Below are positions 1 through 22,414 of a stretch of DNA of 64,000 nt, piece by piece; within the stretch, counting starts at the first letter, position 1, and every line of letters begins with the position of its first letter. The position numbers and the translations under genes were made by a program. The notes under the pieces are model-generated. The model searched no databases. It was not told the origin of the DNA and saw only the letters and a list, made by a program, of their open reading frames with translations. The stretch comes from a virus (taxonomy: Duplodnaviria; Caudoviricetes): positions 1 to 64,000 of IMG/VR virus record IMGVR_UViG_3300003316_000244; one strand, written 5' to 3'.

Positions 1-152
1 TAAGTCTTCCCTTATATAAGGGAAAATGATCTGATGAAATAATAACATAATAATCAGATTCTACATTTCCAAATTGCAATGTTTCATAAATATTACTAAT
101 TGCAAATTTAAAATTATTAATTAATAATTTTTTTATTTCATCATTCACATAA

Positions 153-183
153 CAAAATTAATATTTTTAATTAAAATATCAAA
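153..183 (-). promoter_or_regulatory. Bacteroidota-type housekeeping-sigma promoter
   Basis: Minus strand reads TTTG(183-180)-N19-TAATTTTG(160-153), matching TTTG-N19-21-TAnnTTTG. Confidence 0.6.
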
Positions 184-192
184 TTTTTAATT

Positions 193-224
193 AAAAAAAA
201 AGGACAGTAAATATTACTGTCCCT
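193..224 (-). terminator. Intrinsic terminator ending the hen1-pnkp operon
   Basis: GGACAGTAA-3nt-TTACTGTCC stem followed on the minus strand by a T9-10 run. Confidence 0.8.
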
Positions 225-247
225 AGAAATCAAACAAAAAATATTAA

Positions 248-478
248 TTAATCTTCATAACTTATTACATAATTTGACCTTGATAATTTTTCATAAGTTT
301 TAATTGCATCAATAGCATTATTAAATGAATCATAATAAATAAAATTACAATTACTTCCAAAGTAATCATTTTTCCACCATAACCACCAAATAAATTTATT
401 TTGTGTTTTAAAAAAAATTAAATAACTATCTCTATTCTTTTTAATTACTTTTTTTATGGTATAAATTCTATTTTTCAT
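248..478 (-). CDS. Hypothetical protein (76 aa)
   Basis: ORF co-directional with and 6 nt after the pnkp C-terminal ORF; no recognisable motif. Confidence 0.55.
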   Translation of the reverse strand: MKNRIYTIKKVIKKNRDSYLIFFKTQNKFIWWLWWKNDYFGSNCNFIYYDSFNNAIDAIKTYEKLSRSNYVISYED

Positions 479-484
479 AAATTA

Positions 485-2425
485 CTATAATCTAGGATCA
501 ATATTTTGTTCGGTATTTATTTCAATAATCATTTGAGCAAGTAATTGTTTATAATCTTCATTTTCTTCATTTATTAAATGATATGGAGTTTGAAGCATTT
601 TAATTCCTAATTCAAATTCAGAAATTGATGTTCTTAATTTTCTTTTAATATTTTTCTTCCTTAAAAGTTTATTATATTTTTTTTCAAATTTGTAATTATG
701 ACCATAAACAATGGTTAAATAATTTTTATTACGAACTTTTAAATATGGAGCAATGCCTTTGTTATATACCTTTTCTGGTTTAACAACAACACCTTCCATA
801 CCAAGTTTTAACGTAATTAAATTATAAAAATTATCAATATTATCTATTAAATGTATATTTTTTTGAAAAACATCAACCATATAATTTTTATCATCTTTTT
901 GTTTTTTAAAATCTAAAATACCATATATAGTATCATCATCTTTTAATTTTTCAAAAATTTCAATATTACTTTGATTTTCAAATGTTATTTCAGTATCATC
1001 TTCATATACAATTTTTAATATAGAAAATGGTTTAATTTCATTTTTAATGTCAGAATGAGTATATAAATAAACCTGATTATCATAATTTTCAATATATTTT
1101 TTTTCTTCTAATAATGGAATATGAATATAAGAATTATAATTACGAAATGTTCTTTCTTTAGTATTACCATATTTAGTGGTAAGTTGTTCTTTATTCATTA
1201 TTTTAATATCATCTATATATTCAAGATATTCATTATTATATTTAATAGAATTTAATATTACTTCAAATCCAGTTTCATTTAATAAATTAATCTCACTTTT
1301 AACACCAACTCCAATAGAAGTAAATTGTTGATCTATTAATCCTTTTCCCATTAATTTCCAAGGAAGAATTTCACAGTCCAACAGAATCATTTTAATCCTA
1401 GTATCTTTTTCAATAAATTTTTCATAATATGGTTTTGCCATTCTAATAATTTCTTCGTGCGAAATATAATTTTCTTTTATTTTATATCCATTTCTGGATA
1501 CAAGATATGTTTGTTCAATATCTTTAAAAAGATAAAGATTTCCACGACTTCCCATATATTTAGGTTGAAGTATCAATTTTTCAATACCTAAATTTTGATA
1601 ATATTTAATAGCTTCATTTAATGATTCAATATCATTTTCACCTTCATTTTTATCAGATGGTGACATTGTACCTGAAATAAAATTTATCTTATCTTTAATT
1701 AAGTATTTTATTCTGGTACGATCTTCAGGTTCTAATTGTGATAAATTATATACTTTATCTTTATCATTATATATTGAAACAATATCATTCAGATTATTAT
1801 TTTTAGATAATGAATCAACATGTTGGATATATGGTTTCCCATTTTTATTAATATGAATAGATGTAAGTCTGCCACCTGCAGCACATCCAGTATCTATCAT
1901 ATATTTGTTCTTAAAATTAACAACCTCTTTAATTGCAACATGTCCCATAATATGAAGAGGATTATTAAATTTAGCTTCATTATTTAAAAAAGAAAAATAA
2001 TTTTCAAGTTCCTCATTATATTTATCATCAGTTTCAAAATCAGCTCTTTTAGGATATATTAAATTTCTTTGATTTTTTAATGCTATTGGTGTAACTTTCC
2101 CTAAAACATCTTCCTTGCATGGTGCATGTGTTACTATAAAATCTCTATGTGTTAAAAATTCTTTTGACCCTTCAAATATTTCAAAAAATTTATTTCTTAA
2201 AATTTCATTTTTTTCTAAAATATTAATTGAATCAAAAAATAATTTTTCTAATTCTTTATCTCTATTAATAAGTTGTCCTTTTAAGGCTTTATAAACATAA
2301 TTTTCATGATTTCCAATGGTTAATAAAATTCGTCCATTTTTCCAATTTTTATATATAAATTCAATAGTGTTAATTAAATCAACACCTTTATCTAAAAAAT
2401 CTCCATTAATTATTATTTTTTTCAT
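485..2425 (-). CDS. pnkp: Pnkp C-terminal part: remainder of the metallophosphoesterase plus RNA ligase (adenylyltransferase) domain
   Basis: Phosphoesterase motifs GDFLDKG, GNHE, THAP, MGH, IDTGC; ligase motifs QPKYMGSR, LDCEILPW, EGVVVKP, YLKVR. Confidence 0.9.
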   Translation of the reverse strand: MKKIIINGDFLDKGVDLINTIEFIYKNWKNGRILLTIGNHENYVYKALKGQLINRDKELEKLFFDSINILEKNEILRNKFFEIFEGSKEFLTHRDFIVTHAPCKEDVLGKVTPIALKNQRNLIYPKRADFETDDKYNEELENYFSFLNNEAKFNNPLHIMGHVAIKEVVNFKNKYMIDTGCAAGGRLTSIHINKNGKPYIQHVDSLSKNNNLNDIVSIYNDKDKVYNLSQLEPEDRTRIKYLIKDKINFISGTMSPSDKNEGENDIESLNEAIKYYQNLGIEKLILQPKYMGSRGNLYLFKDIEQTYLVSRNGYKIKENYISHEEIIRMAKPYYEKFIEKDTRIKMILLDCEILPWKLMGKGLIDQQFTSIGVGVKSEINLLNETGFEVILNSIKYNNEYLEYIDDIKIMNKEQLTTKYGNTKERTFRNYNSYIHIPLLEEKKYIENYDNQVYLYTHSDIKNEIKPFSILKIVYEDDTEITFENQSNIEIFEKLKDDDTIYGILDFKKQKDDKNYMVDVFQKNIHLIDNIDNFYNLITLKLGMEGVVVKPEKVYNKGIAPYLKVRNKNYLTIVYGHNYKFEKKYNKLLRKKNIKRKLRTSISEFELGIKMLQTPYHLINEENEDYKQLLAQMIIEINTEQNIDPRL

Positions 2426-2679
2426 TCCTTATTTTTTCGTTTATTATATTCTACCGAAATAAATGTTCCAATAAAACCACCAATTGCTGCTGCAATAATA
2501 AGCGTTTTATCATGAACGTAATTAATAGTGGTTAGTGCTCCAAATAATAAAATAATGGAACTCCATGATGCTGCTGCAAAACTTTTCTTTTCACCAACTT
2601 TTATAAAATACATTGTCCAACAAATATCTGACAATGTAACTAAAATTATAATAGTTATAAATTGTAACCAATAACTCAT
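2422..2679 (-). CDS. Small membrane protein (85 aa, about 3 TM helices) lying inside the pnkp locus
   Basis: Three hydrophobic segments, GGFIGT motif, basic C-tail; starts 1 nt after the pnkp-N stop and overlaps the pnkp-C start (ATGA). Confidence 0.75.
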   Translation of the reverse strand: MSYWLQFITIIILVTLSDICWTMYFIKVGEKKSFAAASWSSIILLFGALTTINYVHDKTLIIAAAIGGFIGTFISVEYNKRKNKE

Positions 2680-2680
2680 A

Positions 2681-3421
2681 TTAATCTATTATTAAATCAT
2701 TTTCATCAATAGTAAAACCATTTTTAATTAACAAATTTTTTAACTCTTGATACGATTGGTGTACATCTCCTATAATTGTATATTCATCTTTTTCAGATAA
2801 AAAAAATGATTTATACCATTCTTTATTTTCAATTTCAATTTGAATTTCTGAAAAATTAATTGTTTTTATTTTTTGAAGGTTAGGATATATTTTTTTTGTA
2901 TATTCTGCTTGTTTTTCTTTAAATTTTTTTAAACTATTCGATATAATTTTTTTTCCAAATGAATCATTATTAGTTGCATATTTAAAATAATCTTCCCGAT
3001 TTCTATAATCAAAAACAATTGGACAAAATGTATAATTTACTTTTTTTGCAATTTCTTCCATTTCGTCTCTAAATTCTTTAGCAAGACCAGTTGTATCAAT
3101 AATAACAAAATCTGCATTCATTGGAAATGAGGTTACAGCAATTAATTTTTCACTAAGTAATGAAAATGCTTTTGCACTAACATAACTCATTCTATCATCA
3201 TTTTTATTAATATAATTTTTATCAGTAAATGGATTAAAACCTAAAAGTTCTCTTCTAATATTATCTGAAGAAATATATTGAATATTTATTGGTTTATTCA
3301 TCTCTTTAAATTCTTCTCTAAGTTTTGGAATTAAAAATTCTGTTGTAAAATACGATTTACCAGAATTAGTTGGTCCAATATAAAGAATTATAGATTGTGG
3401 TTTTATTTTTAAAATATCCAT
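2681..3421 (-). CDS. pnkp: Pnkp N-terminal part: polynucleotide 5'-kinase plus first phosphoesterase motif
   Basis: P-loop GPTNSGKS, IIDTTG, and C-terminal IIGDVH phosphoesterase motif I. Confidence 0.88.
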   Translation of the reverse strand: MDILKIKPQSIILYIGPTNSGKSYFTTEFLIPKLREEFKEMNKPINIQYISSDNIRRELLGFNPFTDKNYINKNDDRMSYVSAKAFSLLSEKLIAVTSFPMNADFVIIDTTGLAKEFRDEMEEIAKKVNYTFCPIVFDYRNREDYFKYATNNDSFGKKIISNSLKKFKEKQAEYTKKIYPNLQKIKTINFSEIQIEIENKEWYKSFFLSEKDEYTIIGDVHQSYQELKNLLIKNGFTIDENDLIID

Positions 3422-3426
3422 TTAAT

Positions 3427-4764
3427 TTAAAATTTGATAATTACTCCTTGTGTAACACTTTCATCATTTACTGAATCTCCAATATCAATAAATTCATACT
3501 TAAATGAACCATACTTTGTAAATTCAGTTAACATAAATGATTGGAATTCTGATTTCCCATATTCCCATTTATGATCATCATGTCTCATTCCTTCCATATT
3601 ATAATTTTTATTAAAATCAGCATTTGGTGTTGTAATAACTACAGTTGTACCAATTTTTTCTTTACAAAAGAAAAATAAATCTTTAAGAAAAATTTTTACA
3701 TCATCAATTGCCATATGCTCTATAACTTCAGAGCATATTATATCATATTTTTCATTATCATCAAATTCATCAATAAAAGAATTAAATGATTGGTAATAAA
3801 TAATATTATCAATGCCTTTCCGTTCGGCTTTAATTTTTAATTTATTTAATGATTCTTCATCTATATCAATTGCATGATAAAATTTTCCTTCATTTAATTT
3901 TGGTGCAAATTTTAAAGCATAACGTCCTTCACCACAGCCAATATCAATAATTTCATTTTTTAAATTCAAAATATTATTAATATAATCTATTCGTTGGATA
4001 TGTGTGTCTCCAAATTTAAATTCTATCTTTTCACTTTTACTATTTTCTAATTGAGATTTGAATTTTTGAAAAAGATTACTTCTTTCATTAAATAATCTCA
4101 ATTTAAAAAGATATTTAATATAATATGGTGCATCTAATGTTTGTATTATTTTTATGTATCTTTCAATTAAATCTTCTTTAACAAATAGATATTCATTATC
4201 ATTAATCATTACTAAAAATAATGAAAGTAAACTTGCATAATTTATTAAATGATGAAGTGTTTTATTTGTTTTTATTATCAATTTATAATTATTACCTGAT
4301 TGTATAACTTCTTCTAAAGAATAATCAGGAAATGATTTTTTAAAAAATAAAAGATATTTTGAAATACCAACATGAACCATATTAATGGTCATTTCATTTT
4401 CATAACCTTCAATATCTTTTTCAAATTCTTCATATTTATTATTTTCTAAATGACCAAAATATTCTTTAATTGCTAAAGACATAAACATAGAAGAATTATA
4501 TCTTGTAAGATTCAAATATTCAAATTCTTCATCTTTAAATTTTTTAAATGATATTTCATCAAATCCATCTCTAAAATAAATAACATAAGTGTCATTAGAC
4601 TTAATTGAAAAATATCCAAATAACAATCCTTCCTTAAGAGTTTTAATTAACATTGGAATTGGCTTCTTTTCGTTTGAATTAAATTCCTCTGAAGGAATAA
4701 ATGGACGTTTTTGTATTACAAAAGAAAAATCAGGATTATTTGATTTTAATGTTAAAATTGACAT
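3427..4764 (-). CDS. hen1: Hen1 3'-terminal RNA ribose 2'-O-methyltransferase
   Basis: N-terminal Hen1-like strand (ILTLKSNNPDFSFVIQKRP); SAM motif DIGCGEG, EVIEH, TTPN, RHDDHKWE; adjacent to pnkp. Confidence 0.9.
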   Translation of the reverse strand: MSILTLKSNNPDFSFVIQKRPFIPSEEFNSNEKKPIPMLIKTLKEGLLFGYFSIKSNDTYVIYFRDGFDEISFKKFKDEEFEYLNLTRYNSSMFMSLAIKEYFGHLENNKYEEFEKDIEGYENEMTINMVHVGISKYLLFFKKSFPDYSLEEVIQSGNNYKLIIKTNKTLHHLINYASLLSLFLVMINDNEYLFVKEDLIERYIKIIQTLDAPYYIKYLFKLRLFNERSNLFQKFKSQLENSKSEKIEFKFGDTHIQRIDYINNILNLKNEIIDIGCGEGRYALKFAPKLNEGKFYHAIDIDEESLNKLKIKAERKGIDNIIYYQSFNSFIDEFDDNEKYDIICSEVIEHMAIDDVKIFLKDLFFFCKEKIGTTVVITTPNADFNKNYNMEGMRHDDHKWEYGKSEFQSFMLTEFTKYGSFKYEFIDIGDSVNDESVTQGVIIKF

Positions 4765-4784
4765 TTTTAATATTTATGTTGTTA

Positions 4785-5018
4785 TTAATACGATTTAAAA
4801 TCATCAATATTTTTTAAAAAATCTTCAATAATTTTTTCATCATTTGATTGATTAATATATTGATTATTTTCTTTAAAAATTAGATCAATAATTTCTAATG
4901 TTTCTCTTGCCATTTTGCCTCTATCTAATTCAATTAAACCAGAATAATTTTCTTCATTAGCATAAAATTCTAAGCATTTTTGAATTAAATCAATATTTTC
5001 TATATTATTCATCTTCAT
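4785..5018 (-). CDS. Hypothetical protein (77 aa)
   Basis: ORF within the operon, overlapping its upstream neighbour. Confidence 0.55.
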   Translation of the reverse strand: MKMNNIENIDLIQKCLEFYANEENYSGLIELDRGKMARETLEIIDLIFKENNQYINQSNDEKIIEDFLKNIDDFKSY

Positions 5019-5325
5019 TTAATAATAAATGATCAATTTCTTTTGTTAAATCTTCAATTTCAAATAATTTCATTTTATATTCCTTTCTAAATGGATATTT
5101 TTTAGGATTTTTTTGTATGTTTCTTACCATAAATTCTCCTTGAGAGTCTGCATTTTCAAAATTTTCATAATCTTCATAAGAAACATTAGAATATGAAATT
5201 ACTCCACCTTTTCTAAAGAAAACATAAAGAAGTTTTTTATTTTTAAAATATAAGGTTTTAAATAAATTACTAGAATTAAAAAGGGCTTCTATGCAATTTT
5301 CTGTTACTTGTTTTTTTAACAACAT
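5005..5325 (-). CDS. KTSC-domain protein
   Basis: SSNL...Y...LYVFFRKGG..SYSNV...YENF..ADSQG pattern typical of KTSC. Confidence 0.75.
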   Translation of the reverse strand: MLLKKQVTENCIEALFNSSNLFKTLYFKNKKLLYVFFRKGGVISYSNVSYEDYENFENADSQGEFMVRNIQKNPKKYPFRKEYKMKLFEIEDLTKEIDHLLLNEDE

Positions 5326-5331
5326 GATTTA

Positions 5332-5362
5332 CAAATATAACGGTATTTATAATAAAAACAAT
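5332..5362 (-). promoter_or_regulatory. Bacteroidota-type promoter for the KTSC-hen1-pnkp operon
   Basis: Minus strand ATTG-N19-TATATTTG just upstream of the 5325 start. Confidence 0.55.
5343..5350 (+). promoter_or_regulatory. Putative late promoter GTATTTAT
   Basis: Motif recurring just upstream of virion genes; 10 nt before ATG 5361. Confidence 0.55.
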
Positions 5363-6137
5363 GTCAAAAAGAAAAAAAATAAATATTAACATTAATCCAC
5401 CCAAATTAGATGATGATAAACCATTTCAATATGGGAAAAAAAGAATTGAAGAATTATTAGCTAAAACAGATGAAAAATCGACTTTTTTACCTAAACCAAT
5501 TGATATAAAAGATTTGGATAGGGCCATTAGAGACTATGTTAAAGAAGGTGATTTAAAACTTGTTTTAGATGGAAAGGATGTACCAACATTTTATTTATCA
5601 AATGAACGATGGGGAGAATTTTCAAAAACTTGGAAATTCACTGACGATGATAAGAATATACCAACACCATTTCTAACAATTAAAAAAACTCAAACCGAAA
5701 TTGGTACAAGAATAGGTAATAAATATAATATTCCAAACGGAAAATTATTCAAATATTTAGATGTTCCAATAGTTGATGAAGGTGAAACAATTTTTTTACG
5801 TTATAAAATAAACCAACCAGTGAATATTGATCTTACATATGAAATAAGATTATTTTCAAAATATATTATCGATATAAATAAATTTGATCAAATATATATT
5901 AAAACATTTAGAAGTTTACAATCATATATATTAGTTAAAGGAAATTATATGCCAGTAATTCAACAGGGAATTTCTGAAGAATCAACAGTTGAAGATATTG
6001 ATGGTGATAGATTTTATGTTAAAGTCTATACTATAAAACTTTTAGGTTTTTTACAATATGAAGATGATTTCAAAATTGTTAAAACAATCAGAAAACCATT
6101 ATTTGTTATTAATACTAATGAAACAAAAAAGCCATAA
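5361..6137 (+). CDS. Probable virion neck/tail-completion protein
   Basis: Late motif upstream; PFLTIKKT...PVNIDLTYEI pattern recalls tail terminator/neck proteins (weak). Confidence 0.45.
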   Translation: MSKRKKINININPPKLDDDKPFQYGKKRIEELLAKTDEKSTFLPKPIDIKDLDRAIRDYVKEGDLKLVLDGKDVPTFYLSNERWGEFSKTWKFTDDDKNIPTPFLTIKKTQTEIGTRIGNKYNIPNGKLFKYLDVPIVDEGETIFLRYKINQPVNIDLTYEIRLFSKYIIDINKFDQIYIKTFRSLQSYILVKGNYMPVIQQGISEESTVEDIDGDRFYVKVYTIKLLGFLQYEDDFKIVKTIRKPLFVINTNETKKP

Positions 6138-6178: not shown

Positions 6179-6949
6179 TTATGATACTACCTGACTTAAT
6201 ATTTTAGGAATAATACTCCTTGCAGCACTTATTAATTCTGATGCTTTAACGGTTGATAATCCACCTTCTACTGAGGCTAATCCGATATTACCACCATGTA
6301 CTGCATGAGTAGCACCAGCAACACCTGCAGCACCTAAAGCTGCAACTAGTGCATAAAATATACCATTAACTACACCTTCTTGTGTTTTTGGAGGTAATGA
6401 ACCAATATATGGACTTAATATTCCCTTTAATACATCAAGATATTTATGATGTAAATGCTCACCAACATGACTAACTTTTTGCCCTATTGATTGTATTGTT
6501 TGATTGTCTGTTTTACTTCCCAAAAATGATAAACTTTTACCAACCAAATTAGTTATTGCTGGTAATGCCAATCCAGCTCCTGCAACCAATGGAAGAATTG
6601 CTTCACTTAATTCTTGTTCTGCAACTGGTGTTTGTTGTTGTGCAGCAGGTTGTTGATTTTGTTGACCAATGGGTTCTAATTGTCCATCTTTATCACCTTG
6701 TGTTTTAGCAATTTGTTGTACTTGCTGTGGTAATTCTTTCATTATTTGACTTAAAGCACTATCCACTTCTTTTTCAAAATTAGCATCAATTTGTGCTTGA
6801 TTTTGTTGTGGTTGTTGATTTGTAGGTGGTGTGGCATTAGTGGTTTGTGCAACTGGTTGTTGTTCTTCTAAAGATTCATTAATATATTTTTTACCCTTTT
6901 TAGGATCATAATTAGACATCTCTAGTATTCTTTTGATATGTTTATCCAT
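6179..6949 (-). CDS. Late-expressed Gln-rich protein with two hydrophobic segments; possible internal head/ejection protein
   Basis: GTATTTAT at 6967-6974; Q/P-rich linker; Ala/Gly-rich hydrophobic C-terminal half. Confidence 0.55.
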   Translation of the reverse strand: MDKHIKRILEMSNYDPKKGKKYINESLEEQQPVAQTTNATPPTNQQPQQNQAQIDANFEKEVDSALSQIMKELPQQVQQIAKTQGDKDGQLEPIGQQNQQPAAQQQTPVAEQELSEAILPLVAGAGLALPAITNLVGKSLSFLGSKTDNQTIQSIGQKVSHVGEHLHHKYLDVLKGILSPYIGSLPPKTQEGVVNGIFYALVAALGAAGVAGATHAVHGGNIGLASVEGGLSTVKASELISAARSIIPKILSQVVS

Positions 6950-6978
6950 TTTTATTAAATTTTATTATAAATACTATT

Positions 6979-7827
6979 TTAAATACTCAAAGTTTCATAA
7001 TTTCCATTAGATGTAAACGATGTTCCACTTGGATATGTTGGTTTTTCTAACGGAATTGATTCAACAGTTGAATTGATTAGATTATTGTATTCTGGATTAT
7101 TAAATTGATTAAAATATAATGACATTGCTGATAAGTCATATTTTCTAGTTGATTTATTTACATTTACTTTTAAATAAATATCTGTTTCATTATTCACTAA
7201 TATTGTTGGAGTAGTTGGGGATGGTAAATTTGTTGCTCCTTTATTATAAAAAGGTATAAAGGCACCACTTTTAGCATTATAAAAAAAATATCTAATATAT
7301 ATATCAAAAGTATTACCAGTAAATGAATTAATATAATCTAATGGTAAATATATTTGTAATGCTTCAGATGAAGAATTAATAATGTGTGTACTTATATTAT
7401 TGTTGGTTTGATTGGCAATTTTTGCAAAATTAAAAACATTATAATAACCAGTAGATAATAATATTTGATTTTTGCTATTAAATGTATCATATACTTGAAC
7501 AACATAAAAACTATTAATAAAACTTTCACTTAAATTTAATATATCTTCAGTTAAATCAAATTTAGTAAATGTATATCTATTCCAATAATTATTATCTAAA
7601 AAATTAAAAGTAAAAGTATAATCACCTTCAATAGGTCTAAACATTTTTTTTTCACCATCATCAAATGGATTAACATTTTCTTCTTTGGATGATGTTAATA
7701 AATCAGTATTATCTTCACTATAATCAACAAAATCAAAACCATCATTTTTCAATGAAACTTTGATATAATTATCATTAGCACCAACTAATTGATTCAATTT
7801 TATTTTATATTTATCTGTGTTTAACAT
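6979..7827 (-). CDS. Hypothetical virion structural protein (282 aa)
   Basis: Overlaps the upstream late gene; N/T/F-rich beta-type composition. Confidence 0.6.
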   Translation of the reverse strand: MLNTDKYKIKLNQLVGANDNYIKVSLKNDGFDFVDYSEDNTDLLTSSKEENVNPFDDGEKKMFRPIEGDYTFTFNFLDNNYWNRYTFTKFDLTEDILNLSESFINSFYVVQVYDTFNSKNQILLSTGYYNVFNFAKIANQTNNNISTHIINSSSEALQIYLPLDYINSFTGNTFDIYIRYFFYNAKSGAFIPFYNKGATNLPSPTTPTILVNNETDIYLKVNVNKSTRKYDLSAMSLYFNQFNNPEYNNLINSTVESIPLEKPTYPSGTSFTSNGNYETLSI

Positions 7828-8960
7828 AATTTTCCAAGTCCATTAATATCTGTAGAAGGTATTGTATTGATAAGAATAGGTTCACTAAATTTTATTTCAC
7901 TAAATACATTGGCAGTATTTTCATGGGTCAAATCTGGAACTATACTTAATATTAAATTATTATATACATAATGTGATCCATTCAAAAATGGATAATCAAC
8001 ACCTAAATTGGTAATTGGTTCAATATAACCAAAATCTAGCAAATCTCTCCATAAATAATTTCCATTATTATCTAATGCAACAGCATACTCTGGTATTGTA
8101 ATATTGCTAACTGTAGTTGCACTTATATTTGCAGTTGAATCAACACTGGAGAAATCTCTTAATTTAATTTCAAGAAATGGACGATATTTAAATTTTAATG
8201 AATTAGTATCATAAGGTATTGTAATATAATATTCTTGTTCATTTATTATATTTTCTAAAAAATTTTCTTTATTATATGAGACTAAATCCCCATACACAAT
8301 ATCACCAATATTATAATTTGTTAATGGTAAATTAACTAATGTAAAATTATTTTCATTTGAAGAAGAATCGAATTCTTTTCTTTCTACTGTTTGTGGAATA
8401 TCCATTCCATTAGGAATAGATTTATAATTAAAATATAAATAAAATTTAGTAATTGGTTTATTAAAACTATCTACCATATTGTATGTTGTTTGATCTAAAC
8501 CATTAGTAAATATATAATTTCTGTCACCAAAAATATTTACACCATATCCACCATAAATTATATCAATATCATCATTTTTTGCAATTACTTTATAATTAGT
8601 AAGATAATTTCCATTATTAAAAGAAGTATTTCCAGTATATGGTGTAATCAAATAAATATCAAAATTATTAATTAAATTTCTAGAATTATTTGTTCGATTT
8701 CTATCGAAAAAATCACTAATTTTAGTAAAATTTGTTTTAAGTCTATGTAACATTGAAACATAATCAACTCTTCCATATATTCTGAATTTTAATGTTTCTT
8801 GTCTTTCTAAATCTGCTTGTTGAGCAACAAGTAATGATGATAGTATATCATATTCAATAAGTTGTTTATTAGTTGATTCTAGAACTAATTTGTCTTCAAT
8901 GTCAACATTTACTGTCTTGATATTTTTTGCACTATTTAAACGAATAATGTTTTCTTCCAT
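7821..8960 (-). CDS. Hypothetical virion structural protein (379 aa)
   Basis: CTATTTAT variant at 8987-8994; composition like tail/baseplate proteins. Confidence 0.6.
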   Translation of the reverse strand: MEENIIRLNSAKNIKTVNVDIEDKLVLESTNKQLIEYDILSSLLVAQQADLERQETLKFRIYGRVDYVSMLHRLKTNFTKISDFFDRNRTNNSRNLINNFDIYLITPYTGNTSFNNGNYLTNYKVIAKNDDIDIIYGGYGVNIFGDRNYIFTNGLDQTTYNMVDSFNKPITKFYLYFNYKSIPNGMDIPQTVERKEFDSSSNENNFTLVNLPLTNYNIGDIVYGDLVSYNKENFLENIINEQEYYITIPYDTNSLKFKYRPFLEIKLRDFSSVDSTANISATTVSNITIPEYAVALDNNGNYLWRDLLDFGYIEPITNLGVDYPFLNGSHYVYNNLILSIVPDLTHENTANVFSEIKFSEPILINTIPSTDINGLGKLC

Positions 8961-20605: not shown

Positions 20606-22414
20606 TCAATATTTTTTATTCCATACAAATCTCATATTACCAGAATCATATACAATATGATATCCAAGTTCTAACATAATTTCAAATTCATGTTTATTTT
20701 CATCATATCCGAGTTTAGTTAATACATCACGTCTAAATGAAAAACGATGATACTTTTTATATGTATTATTTTTTACATACCAATAACCGGGTTCAGTATC
20801 ATTCATATAAACAAAATCCGTTGATTTATAACTTTCACCATCAAAATATCTTTTATCTACAAGAGATATTATTTGTTTTGGATCAATTTCATTAATAAAA
20901 TGTTTTACTAGTTTACTAAAACCACCATGAACTTTATAATTAAGTTTTTTACAAAACCTAAGTAATTCAAAATGTCCATCAATGTTTATATCTTTTTCAC
21001 CATTTGATTTTCTTTTTTTCCCAAAACCAATAACAGCAACTAATTCACTATTATGCATTAATCCATATTTATGTTTGGTTGCTACACGTCCTTGGATGTG
21101 ATTTTCATTTAAAAATTGTGTATATGTTTTACTATCAAGTTCTTTAATTATACATTTTCTTGCATAAACTTTATGGTCATAAATATTAAATTTAGATTTG
21201 ATTATTGATTTAACTATTTCTTTTTTATTAGTCCATTCATCTTCAAATATTTGATATAATTTGATTCCTAATGTTTTGGTTTCATTTAATTTATTAATAT
21301 GATAATCTTTTTCCTTAAAAAGGATAGAATGCCAATATGTACCATCACATTCAAATCCCAAATTAAGTTCTGGTAAAAATATATCTATTGATTTTTTATT
21401 ATCTTTATTATAAATGTATGATCTAATAATTTTTTTAGTTGGTAATAATGATTTAATATAATCACCTATTTCTTGTTCTTTTATTGATTTAGCAGTTTCA
21501 GGAGGAAAACATTTGGTACAAAACATATTTAATTTATAAATATAATATCTTGTATATAATAAATATCTATTAATTTTAAATTCATCATGTAATGGACAAT
21601 GATTTTTAACAATAACTTCTTTTGTTTTTTTCTGTAAATCTATTTCTAATGTTGGATACCTCGATTTGAAATTATTTGATATTGTTTCATATCTTTTTTC
21701 ACTAAGTTTCTCATTATGTAATGGATAAATAACACCATATTTTTCTAAATTAGTTTTATCCCTTTTCTTTCTAACATTTTCATCTGACATTGGTCCGCGT
21801 GAACCATATTTTTCTAAATTAGTTTTATATATTTTATTTTTAATTTCTTCATTATTAAATGGATTTTCAACCCCATATTTTTCAAGATTTGTTTTCTTTG
21901 TTTTTTCATTAATTTCTTCATTTCGAAGAGTACATTCAACCCCATATCTTTCCAAGTTAGTTTTTTTCAATTTCTCCTTAAGTTCTGGAGAATGCATCAT
22001 ATTTTCAACACCATAATTTTTGAGTAATGTTTCTTTTTTCTTTTCTTTTACTGAATCTAATTGATTATGACTTTCAACACCATATTTTTCAAGAAATCCT
22101 TTTTTTGTATTTTGTTTTTTTTGATTGGACTGATTGGTGCATTTAATAGAGCAAAATTGATTATAACCTTCACTGATTTTTTCTCTGAAATTAACTTCAT
22201 TAATACCACAATGTTTGCATTTTGCAATTTCAGTTAATTCATAAATATAATTATAAACCTTCTGATTAAAAGGTATTTCTAACATTTTCAAGTTTAAAGG
22301 GAAATTAATTATCTTATCATACAATTCAGGTTTGTTTTTAGATAACCAACTTACTTTGGTTTTATGACCAGATTTGTTGTCTGTAGTAAAAAAATCGAAG
22401 ATTTCTTGTTTCAT
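20606..22414 (-). mobile_element. Free-standing Hef-like homing endonuclease with Zn finger and six 23-aa repeats
   Basis: CKHCG..FCSIKC; KKTNLEKYGV repeats; PD-(D/E)xK-like IDIFLPELNLGFECDG.YWH; C-terminal RKC.IKE...FLNENHIQG...ELLRFC...GGFSKL domain; antisense between tube and sheath. Confidence 0.7.
21730..22110 (-). repeat. Six degenerate 69-bp (23-aa) tandem repeats
   Basis: The Tyr-Gly codon anchor recurs at 21736, 21805, 21874, 21943, 22012 and 22081. Confidence 0.85.

Follow-up and report, generated by a model that had tools for sequence, protein, structure and literature searches.

The Pnkp-Hen1 RNA repair systems described in Clostridium thermocellum and Anabaena (PMC3675462) combine a kinase, a metallophosphoesterase, and a Pnkp-type ligase on a single polypeptide, with Hen1 encoded beside it; the Pnkp1-Rnl-Hen1 heterohexamer of Capnocytophaga gingivalis (PMC4411300) is built from three polypeptides, is split between its healing and sealing modules, and uses a free-standing Rnl and a phosphatase of the T4 Pnkp type, which belongs to another superfamily. 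A phage-borne pair, PNKP (ORF197) and Hen1 (ORF198), is encoded by the jumbo phage XacN1, a large myovirus, with PNKP annotated as a single gene (PMC5852040). Phages also have "genes in pieces," such as nrdA-a/mobE/nrdA-b of Aeromonas phage Aeh1, where function is retained after the split (Friedrich et al. 2007; Crona et al. 2011, PMC3045599; review PMC2988022), T4 gene 39/60, and gene 43 of phage 25/44RR (PMC3045599; PMC2988022). Here we describe a phage hen1-pnkp locus in which pnkp is divided into two open reading frames (ORFs), pnkp-N and pnkp-C, with a small membrane-protein gene between them. The window (the whole 64,000-nt stretch of DNA analyzed) is positions 1 to 64,000 of IMG/VR record IMGVR_UViG_3300003316_000244 (75,190 bp; CheckV completeness ∼23%); it is a fragment of a large tailed phage and carries tail sheath, NAMPT, and HNH endonuclease genes, and a megablast search of window positions 1 to 6000 against phage records returned no match.

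The locus resembles the C. thermocellum and Anabaena systems in the set and order of its domains, in its hen1 neighbor, and in retaining all of the essential phosphatase residues, but it is phage encoded, its Pnkp is on two chains, little remains of the β3-β4 hairpin, Arg237 of C. thermocellum Pnkp (CthPnkp) is replaced by Lys in motif II, and the ligase is closer to C. gingivalis Rnl. Like Pnkp1-Rnl-Hen1, it is a three-polypeptide system that includes Hen1, and its closest solved ligase is from that system; however, its phosphatase is a calcineurin-like metallophosphoesterase, the cut falls inside that domain, most of which remains joined to the ligase. The match to XacN1 PNKP is confined to the ligase part (33% identity). 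As with Aeh1 nrdA, a phage enzyme gene that is contiguous in relatives is cut between active-site elements by a free-standing gene, so that two polypeptides must reassemble (as is predicted for the window), but in Aeh1 the enzyme is a ribonucleotide reductase, the insert is a homing endonuclease gene, and the insertion-derived NrdA tails are essential, whereas in the window a Pnkp metallophosphoesterase is cut by a small membrane-protein gene, and the tails are nearly absent (2 to 3 residues). A literature search found no report of a Pnkp split inside its metallophosphoesterase, and these comparisons suggest that the window holds a previously undescribed case of the established genes-in-pieces theme.

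We favor the interpretation, at a probability of about 0.6, that this is a functional phage hen1-pnkp gene in pieces, with two chains that assemble and a passenger membrane-protein gene between them. It builds on the observed anatomy, authenticity, and age of the split, the foreign origin of the insert, the conservation of residues, and purifying selection. The segment coding for the surface β3-β4 hairpin between motifs I and II would have given way to a stop codon, a free-standing gene for a phage membrane protein, and a new start codon. One product would then be a kinase chain that also has the opening strand of the phosphatase, its motif I, and its helix 1; the other would consist of the remainder of the phosphatase together with the ligase. 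The three ORFs would be cotranscribed and translationally coupled, and the two chains would come together in a single metallophosphoesterase fold, the N chain contributing two metal ligands and the C chain the seven other essential residues. In complex with Hen1, this enzyme would heal, 2'-O-methylate, and seal cut RNA, the substrate probably being tRNA cut by host or competitor ribonucleases.

Anatomy of the divided pnkp

All genes at the locus are on the minus strand. The first piece, pnkp-N (246 aa; positions 2681 to 3421), is defined by its ORF, Pfam matches, and structure alignment, and codes for a kinase and the start of the metallophosphoesterase. Residues 1 to ∼187 (2861 to 3421) form a P-loop polynucleotide kinase, with weak Pfam matches (KTI12, 27 bits; AAA_33, 20 bits) and a full-length alignment with the N termini of Pnkp homologues, in which G21, K22, S52, D53, R56, D109, T111, and R118 (P-loop GK, SD..R, and D.T..R) are invariant. 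Residues 188 to 246 (2684 to 2860) comprise the first phosphoesterase strand, motif I, and helix 1, with residues 210 to 240 aligning to 4J6O chain residues 10 to 40; motif I is GDVH (2759 to 2770), whose invariant D219 and H221 correspond to the metal ligands Asp187 and His189 of CthPnkp. The second piece, pnkp-C (646 aa; positions 485 to 2425), is defined by its ORF and Pfam matches and carries motifs II to V and the ligase. Its phosphatase part, residues 1 to 235 (1721 to 2425), aligns to 4J6O chain residues 58 to 236 and includes motif II (GDFLDKG, 2384 to 2404, placed by the structure alignment), the GNHE motif (2303 to 2314), and THAP, GH, and IDTG motifs. The ligase part, residues 236 to 646 (485 to 1720; PF16542, 110 bits), contains the adenylylation Lys289 in QPKYMGSR. 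Although of the fused type, this ligase is far closer to the free-standing C. gingivalis Rnl (PDB 4xru, E 1.5e-55, the best match among solved structures) than to the CthPnkp ligase (3ty9, E 6e-16).

Between the two pieces is a gene for an 85-aa protein (positions 2422 to 2679), assigned by homologue search and AlphaFold2 (AF2) modeling to a phage family of three-helix membrane proteins that has no name. The pnkp-N TAA is followed after 1 nt by the ATG of the 85-aa ORF, the TGA of which overlaps the ATG of pnkp-C (ATGA, 4 nt). pnkp-N ends 25 residues past motif I, and pnkp-C begins 7 residues ahead of motif II. A prior sequence-only reading had the kinase ORF stopping just after motif I and a second ORF starting right before motif II with the remaining motifs and the ligase domain, and its coordinates and motif content are exact. 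It also had the halves in the same reading frame, 258 nt apart, with in-frame stops and a separate gene between them; this too is as found (the 258 nt include the TAA), with eight stops in that frame of the spacer. We give the shared frame itself no weight, because it has a one-in-three chance of arising at random and is not seen in two other split relatives (L005 and L015, described below).

Alignment to CthPnkp, suggested in the sequence-only reading as a check, maps all nine residues that are essential for its phosphatase (PMC3675462), two to the N chain and seven to the C chain. With chain residue 19 of 4J6O numbered as CthPnkp Asp187, these are Asp187 and His189 (D219 and H221 of the N chain), followed on the C chain by Asp233 and Arg237 (D9 and K13), Asn263 and His264 (N39 and H40), His323 (H100), His376 (H162), and Asp392 (D178). 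All nine are kept and invariant in the alignments, with Arg237 represented by Lys. The substitution is a trait of the clade rather than a defect, since motif II is GDxxDKG in all 109 close homologues; R237 substitutions in CthPnkp are reported to alter the reaction outcome (PMC3675462), and the whole GDxxDKG clade may thus be a diesterase-biased group of enzymes.

The CthPnkp segment that lacks an alignment partner is residues 209 to 225, a Pnkp-specific 17-residue β3-β4 hairpin that is solvent exposed at the protein's inferolateral surface, far from the active site (PMC3675462). The spacing between the motif I and motif II aspartates is also naturally variable, ranging from 26 to 54 residues (median, 40) among 109 unsplit full-length homologues, and the window chains sum to 36; a spacing of 190 residues in one homologue was rejected as a regular-expression artifact. 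The earlier description of the gene as split inside the phosphatase active site was therefore overstated: the break is between motifs I and II, but structurally it falls within a hairpin at the surface, distant from the metal site in the 4J6O alignment (PMC3675462). The active-site residues span two chains, although the break itself, as placed by the alignment, sits in a dispensable surface element.

Selection on the two chains

The sequence-only reading had suggested looking for the same split in related phages, and it is present in two other contigs. L004, an independent JGI metagenome contig, matches the window at 99.3% nucleotide identity over 2,473 nt without gaps, and has the same layout of hen1, a 246-aa ORF, an 85-aa ORF, and the start of the C-half. 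The more distant L001, a Logan contig, has a homologous small ORF (63% identity) directly ahead of a C-half that starts at the same residue as that of the window (MKKIILIGDFIDKG) and is 58% identical to it over 642 aligned codons. Because the small ORF is about as diverged as its flanks, the insertion is, to judge by these distances, older than the separation of the window and L001 lineages and predates their ∼40% protein divergence.

Between the window and L001, both of which have the insert, the ratio of nonsynonymous to synonymous substitution rates (dN/dS) is 0.28 in the phosphatase part of the C-half; the ligase has a value of 0.40 and the small ORF one of 0.35, and synonymous divergence (dS) is ∼0.8 to 1.2. 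For the N-half phosphatase piece, the ratio is 0.33 between the window and L005, with D219 and H221 intact. The values across pieces range from 0.22 to 0.40, and both pieces, as expected of a gene in pieces, are intact and under purifying selection, with the qualification that the N-half comparator L005 is possibly unsplit. The window and L001 have identical metal and phosphate ligands in the C-half, a retention that makes sense only if motif I is supplied by the N chain, since Asp187 is indispensable in CthPnkp. The retention of all catalytic residues together with dN/dS of ∼0.3 makes decay of the split pnkp unlikely, and the earlier argument that intact ligands speak against it holds.

Several points weigh against a working two-chain phosphatase. 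Selection on motif I after the split is not cleanly seen, as L005, the sole N-half comparison of useful divergence, may be unsplit. Of the 17 substitutions between the window and L004, 16 are nonsynonymous; these are too few for a dN/dS estimate, yet they do not point to constraint. The C-half might retain its phosphatase part to link kinase and ligase, as a scaffold and not a catalyst, and a relative in another clade (L003, see below) indicates that a C-half may persist without an adjacent partner. As to their distribution over window positions 2422 to 4764, the nonsynonymous changes relative to L004 account for 12 of 13 substitutions in hen1 and four of four in the kinase domain, and there are no differences in the small ORF or the start of the C-half.

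The strongest alternative is a partial loss of function, in which the phosphatase is dead, the N chain is a kinase acting on its own, its motif I tail a vestige, the C chain is a Hen1-activated ligase with a scaffold, and 3'-end healing is performed by another enzyme or is unneeded. The L003 C-half with no N-half nearby and the nearly exclusively nonsynonymous differences from L004 speak for it. However, every phosphatase catalytic residue is kept on both window chains, and on the L001 C chain after ∼40% divergence; a mere scaffold would have no need of metal and phosphate ligands, and the dN/dS of the phosphatase part (0.28) is not above that of the ligase (0.40). We regard partial loss as unlikely, though not to be set aside lightly, and prefer the functional gene in pieces.

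Origin of the interruption

A homologue search with a profile built from the two pnkp-embedded copies places the 85-aa protein in a family whose representative proteins number 897 at E ≤ 1e-3 and 135 at E ≤ 1e-10, with lengths of 77 to 105 aa in almost every case, and its neighbors in the Atlas are 88 to 100% viral. The AF2 model, from a 40-sequence alignment, has helices at residues 3 to 29, 33 to 56, and 60 to 84 (pLDDT 95.8), and the charge distribution fits an N-out/C-in topology. The protein has no Pfam or PHROG match, no fold match in the PDB, and no consistent Pfam family among 40 members; an assignment to DUF5698 was not adopted, as it rests only on Atlas neighbors, of which 17 to 20% have DUF5698, and the small ORF was its own sole match in a word-index search. 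It also has no match to a nuclease family, so the intervening gene, in a departure from other genes in pieces, is not a homing endonuclease. None of 14 homologue loci examined (tblastn, 42 to 56% identity) has pnkp or hen1 within ∼4 kb, and no neighbor is conserved across lineages, shared neighbors being confined to close lineages. These contexts indicate a free-standing phage accessory gene that entered pnkp once, in the lineage of the window, L004, and L001. In two homologue contexts, L006:2294-3277 and L012:2400-3554, the gene is a few kilobases from an RNA ligase (PF09414) or CCA-adding enzyme (PF01743) gene, which may be coincidence within accessory regions.

The 85-aa protein is most likely a passenger without a link to repair. 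That it could instead be a working part, such as a membrane tether or regulator of the repair complex, gains something from its translational coupling between the halves and its conservation alongside them (63% identity, dN/dS 0.35), as well as from the RNA-end enzymes found within a few kilobases in two of the three homologue contexts inspected. We nonetheless consider a working role improbable, given the 0/14 count for pnkp or hen1 and the lack of any cross-lineage neighbor, its absence from unsplit Pnkp-Hen1 operons, and the endonuclease cassette that occupies the same spot in another split clade. The specific version, in which it serves as a third subunit, coupled in translation, to anchor or gate a two-chain Pnkp-Hen1 at the inner membrane, is a long shot; if true, phage RNA repair would be spatially organized, for example sited where imported ribotoxins or membrane-associated anticodon nucleases act.

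The closest full-length relatives of the window Pnkp (P0003 to P0011 and L016) are unsplit proteins of 888 to 925 aa with 47 to 48% identity, and form the sister clade of the window and P0002 (SH-aLRT 99). Of nine IMG/VR loci with a relative, seven have an uninterrupted pnkp after hen1, so that pnkp, like other genes in pieces, is contiguous in close relatives. L005 (Logan SRR29078161), whose N-half has 61% identity to that of the window, lacks a gene between the halves. Its N ORF extends ∼22 residues further into the loop and overlaps the next ORF (which starts MNPKTKKIILIGDFVDKG) by 17 nt in a different frame (L005:1020-1110), and dropping one A from the A5 run at 1089 to 1093 would join the frames and restore a normal loop. 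A frameshift split with a restart, an unsplit gene with a 1-nt error, or slippage could each account for L005; whichever holds, it shows the insert-free state, and relative to it the window has ∼21 loop codons swapped for a stop, the small ORF, and a start. The unsplit sister clade and the occurrence of the insert family in unrelated contexts support the interruption of an ancestral one-chain pnkp by a foreign cassette, and with the split copies in L004 and L001, they bear out the proposal in the sequence-only reading that a cassette had entered a loop of such a gene.

Two observations on other relatives concern the surroundings of pnkp and breakage elsewhere in the gene. L016, a 371-kb contig and the closest IMG/VR relative, has ∼1 kb between hen1 and its unsplit pnkp (L016:4225-5254). 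In L022 (IMGVR_UViG_3300045146_000225; L022:5284-8907), a phage pnkp with hen1 downstream is broken inside the ligase domain by a 394-aa TnpB-like ORF with a C-terminal zinc ribbon (6854 to 8038); it is without the segment that matches residues 190 to 361 of the window C-half, including the adenylylation lysine, and looks like a genuinely disrupted copy.

A second cassette is present at the same hairpin in a different clade (38% identity). In L015 (IMGVR_UViG_3300028361_000012, a 195-kb IMG/VR contig), the order is hen1, a 256-aa N-half, an 83-aa Cys-rich ORF, an antisense 348-aa LAGLIDADG gene (LAGLIDADG_3 PF14528, 38 bits; phrog_4645), and a 646-aa C-half. The N-half ends 36 residues past GDIH, and the C-half starts MEKKEKRIILCGDVIDKG, as in the window a few residues ahead of motif II, although the cassette is different. 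L035 (P0054), an unsplit sister of L015, is collinear on both sides at 80 to 84% nucleotide identity, and L015 has 1,496 nt in place of 73 nt; the cassette contributes the last ∼18 codons of the N-half and the first ∼11 of the C-half, and a copy of an E-N/K-K-K/R-I-I-L-like stretch is retained on both sides. With an unsplit sister at a branch length of 0.05, this split is, on the tree, recent. The natural length variation at the hairpin and the LAGLIDADG cassette at the same site support the view that a split is tolerated there.

The C-halves of P0041 (L002) and P0083 (L003) begin at the same place as that of L015. At least three changes of the split label are required on the C-half tree, with split and unsplit forms separated by branches of 0.05 to 0.1, and motif II is GDVIDKG in all three split forms of this clade and GDLVDKG in their unsplit kin, a pattern that could reflect one cassette spreading by homing with co-conversion, or an immunity change. 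Homologues of the L015 cassette (homing endonuclease gene and orf83) were found in none of the window, L002, and L003. In L003, the C-half is without an N-half, hen1, or endonuclease in the 4.4 kb upstream (L003:1-4424; the L002 region is L002:1-205), and the partner gene may have been displaced or lost. A 269-aa ORF downstream of the L002 C-half was rejected as a displaced N-half (BLASTP E 0.014; weak isochorismatase-like match). In the same clade, a DnaJ gene follows pnkp in both split (L002 and L003) and unsplit (L035) genomes.

Removal of the interruption after transcription or translation, by an intron, an intein, or ribosomal bypass, would give one chain and would accord with the shared frame of the halves. 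There is, however, no Rfam match in positions 1 to 5400 at E ≤ 1 and no intein motif, and the locus does not match a self-splicing element; the spacer has eight in-frame stops, and its 258 nt far exceed the 50-nt gap given for T4 gene 60 in bioRxiv 10.1101/2022.08.31.505936. The halves, moreover, are in different frames in L015 and overlap in different frames in L005. Splicing or bypass is thus very unlikely, as the insert codes for a conserved protein from an independent membrane-protein family, is under purifying selection, and matches no RNA family. An assembly or sequencing artifact, conceivable in that the sequence is of metagenomic origin, is equally remote, the identical arrangement in the independent L004 contig ruling out misassembly and L001 having the same architecture in diverged form.

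Locus setting and significance

Upstream of pnkp-N, with 5 nt between them, is hen1 (positions 3427 to 4764), which codes for an RNA 3'-end 2'-O-methyltransferase with an N-terminal ligase-activating domain (PF22032 Hen1_N, 187 bits, plus SAM methyltransferase domains). The locus thus has the components of a Pnkp-Hen1 system, namely a two-domain Hen1 beside pnkp, a kinase, a metallophosphoesterase, and a Pnkp-type ligase, but the three Pnkp activities are on two ORFs with another gene between them rather than on a single polypeptide. The genes are part of a closely packed minus-strand run at positions 200 to 5325, in which the ORF list also has small ORFs at 5005 to 5325 and 4785 to 5018 and a 76-aa ORF at 248 to 478. 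A search of positions 1 to 5500 for terminator-like hairpins found a single one, at 200 to 224, which is probably the end of the operon, and none from hen1 through the end of pnkp-C; the gene packing and lack of an internal terminator fit coexpression. Elsewhere in the window, a 602-aa HNH-type homing endonuclease gene (20606 to 22414; phrog_3339, E 3e-124) adjoins the tail sheath gene, so mobile endonucleases are present in this genome, although not at pnkp.

If the two chains assemble, the product would be a naturally occurring heterodimer, a binuclear metallophosphoesterase whose metal ligands come from two polypeptides, and the locus would represent a third architecture of Hen1-linked RNA repair, after Pnkp-Hen1 and Pnkp1-Rnl-Hen1. 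The split adds to phage genes in pieces an RNA repair enzyme, an intervening gene that does not code for an endonuclease, and an insertion site that at least two unrelated cassettes have entered. This marks the β3-β4 hairpin as a permissive break point that could be useful for split-enzyme design, and for the annotation of large phages, a "kinase" and a "metallophosphoesterase" that are called separately may be parts of one enzyme.

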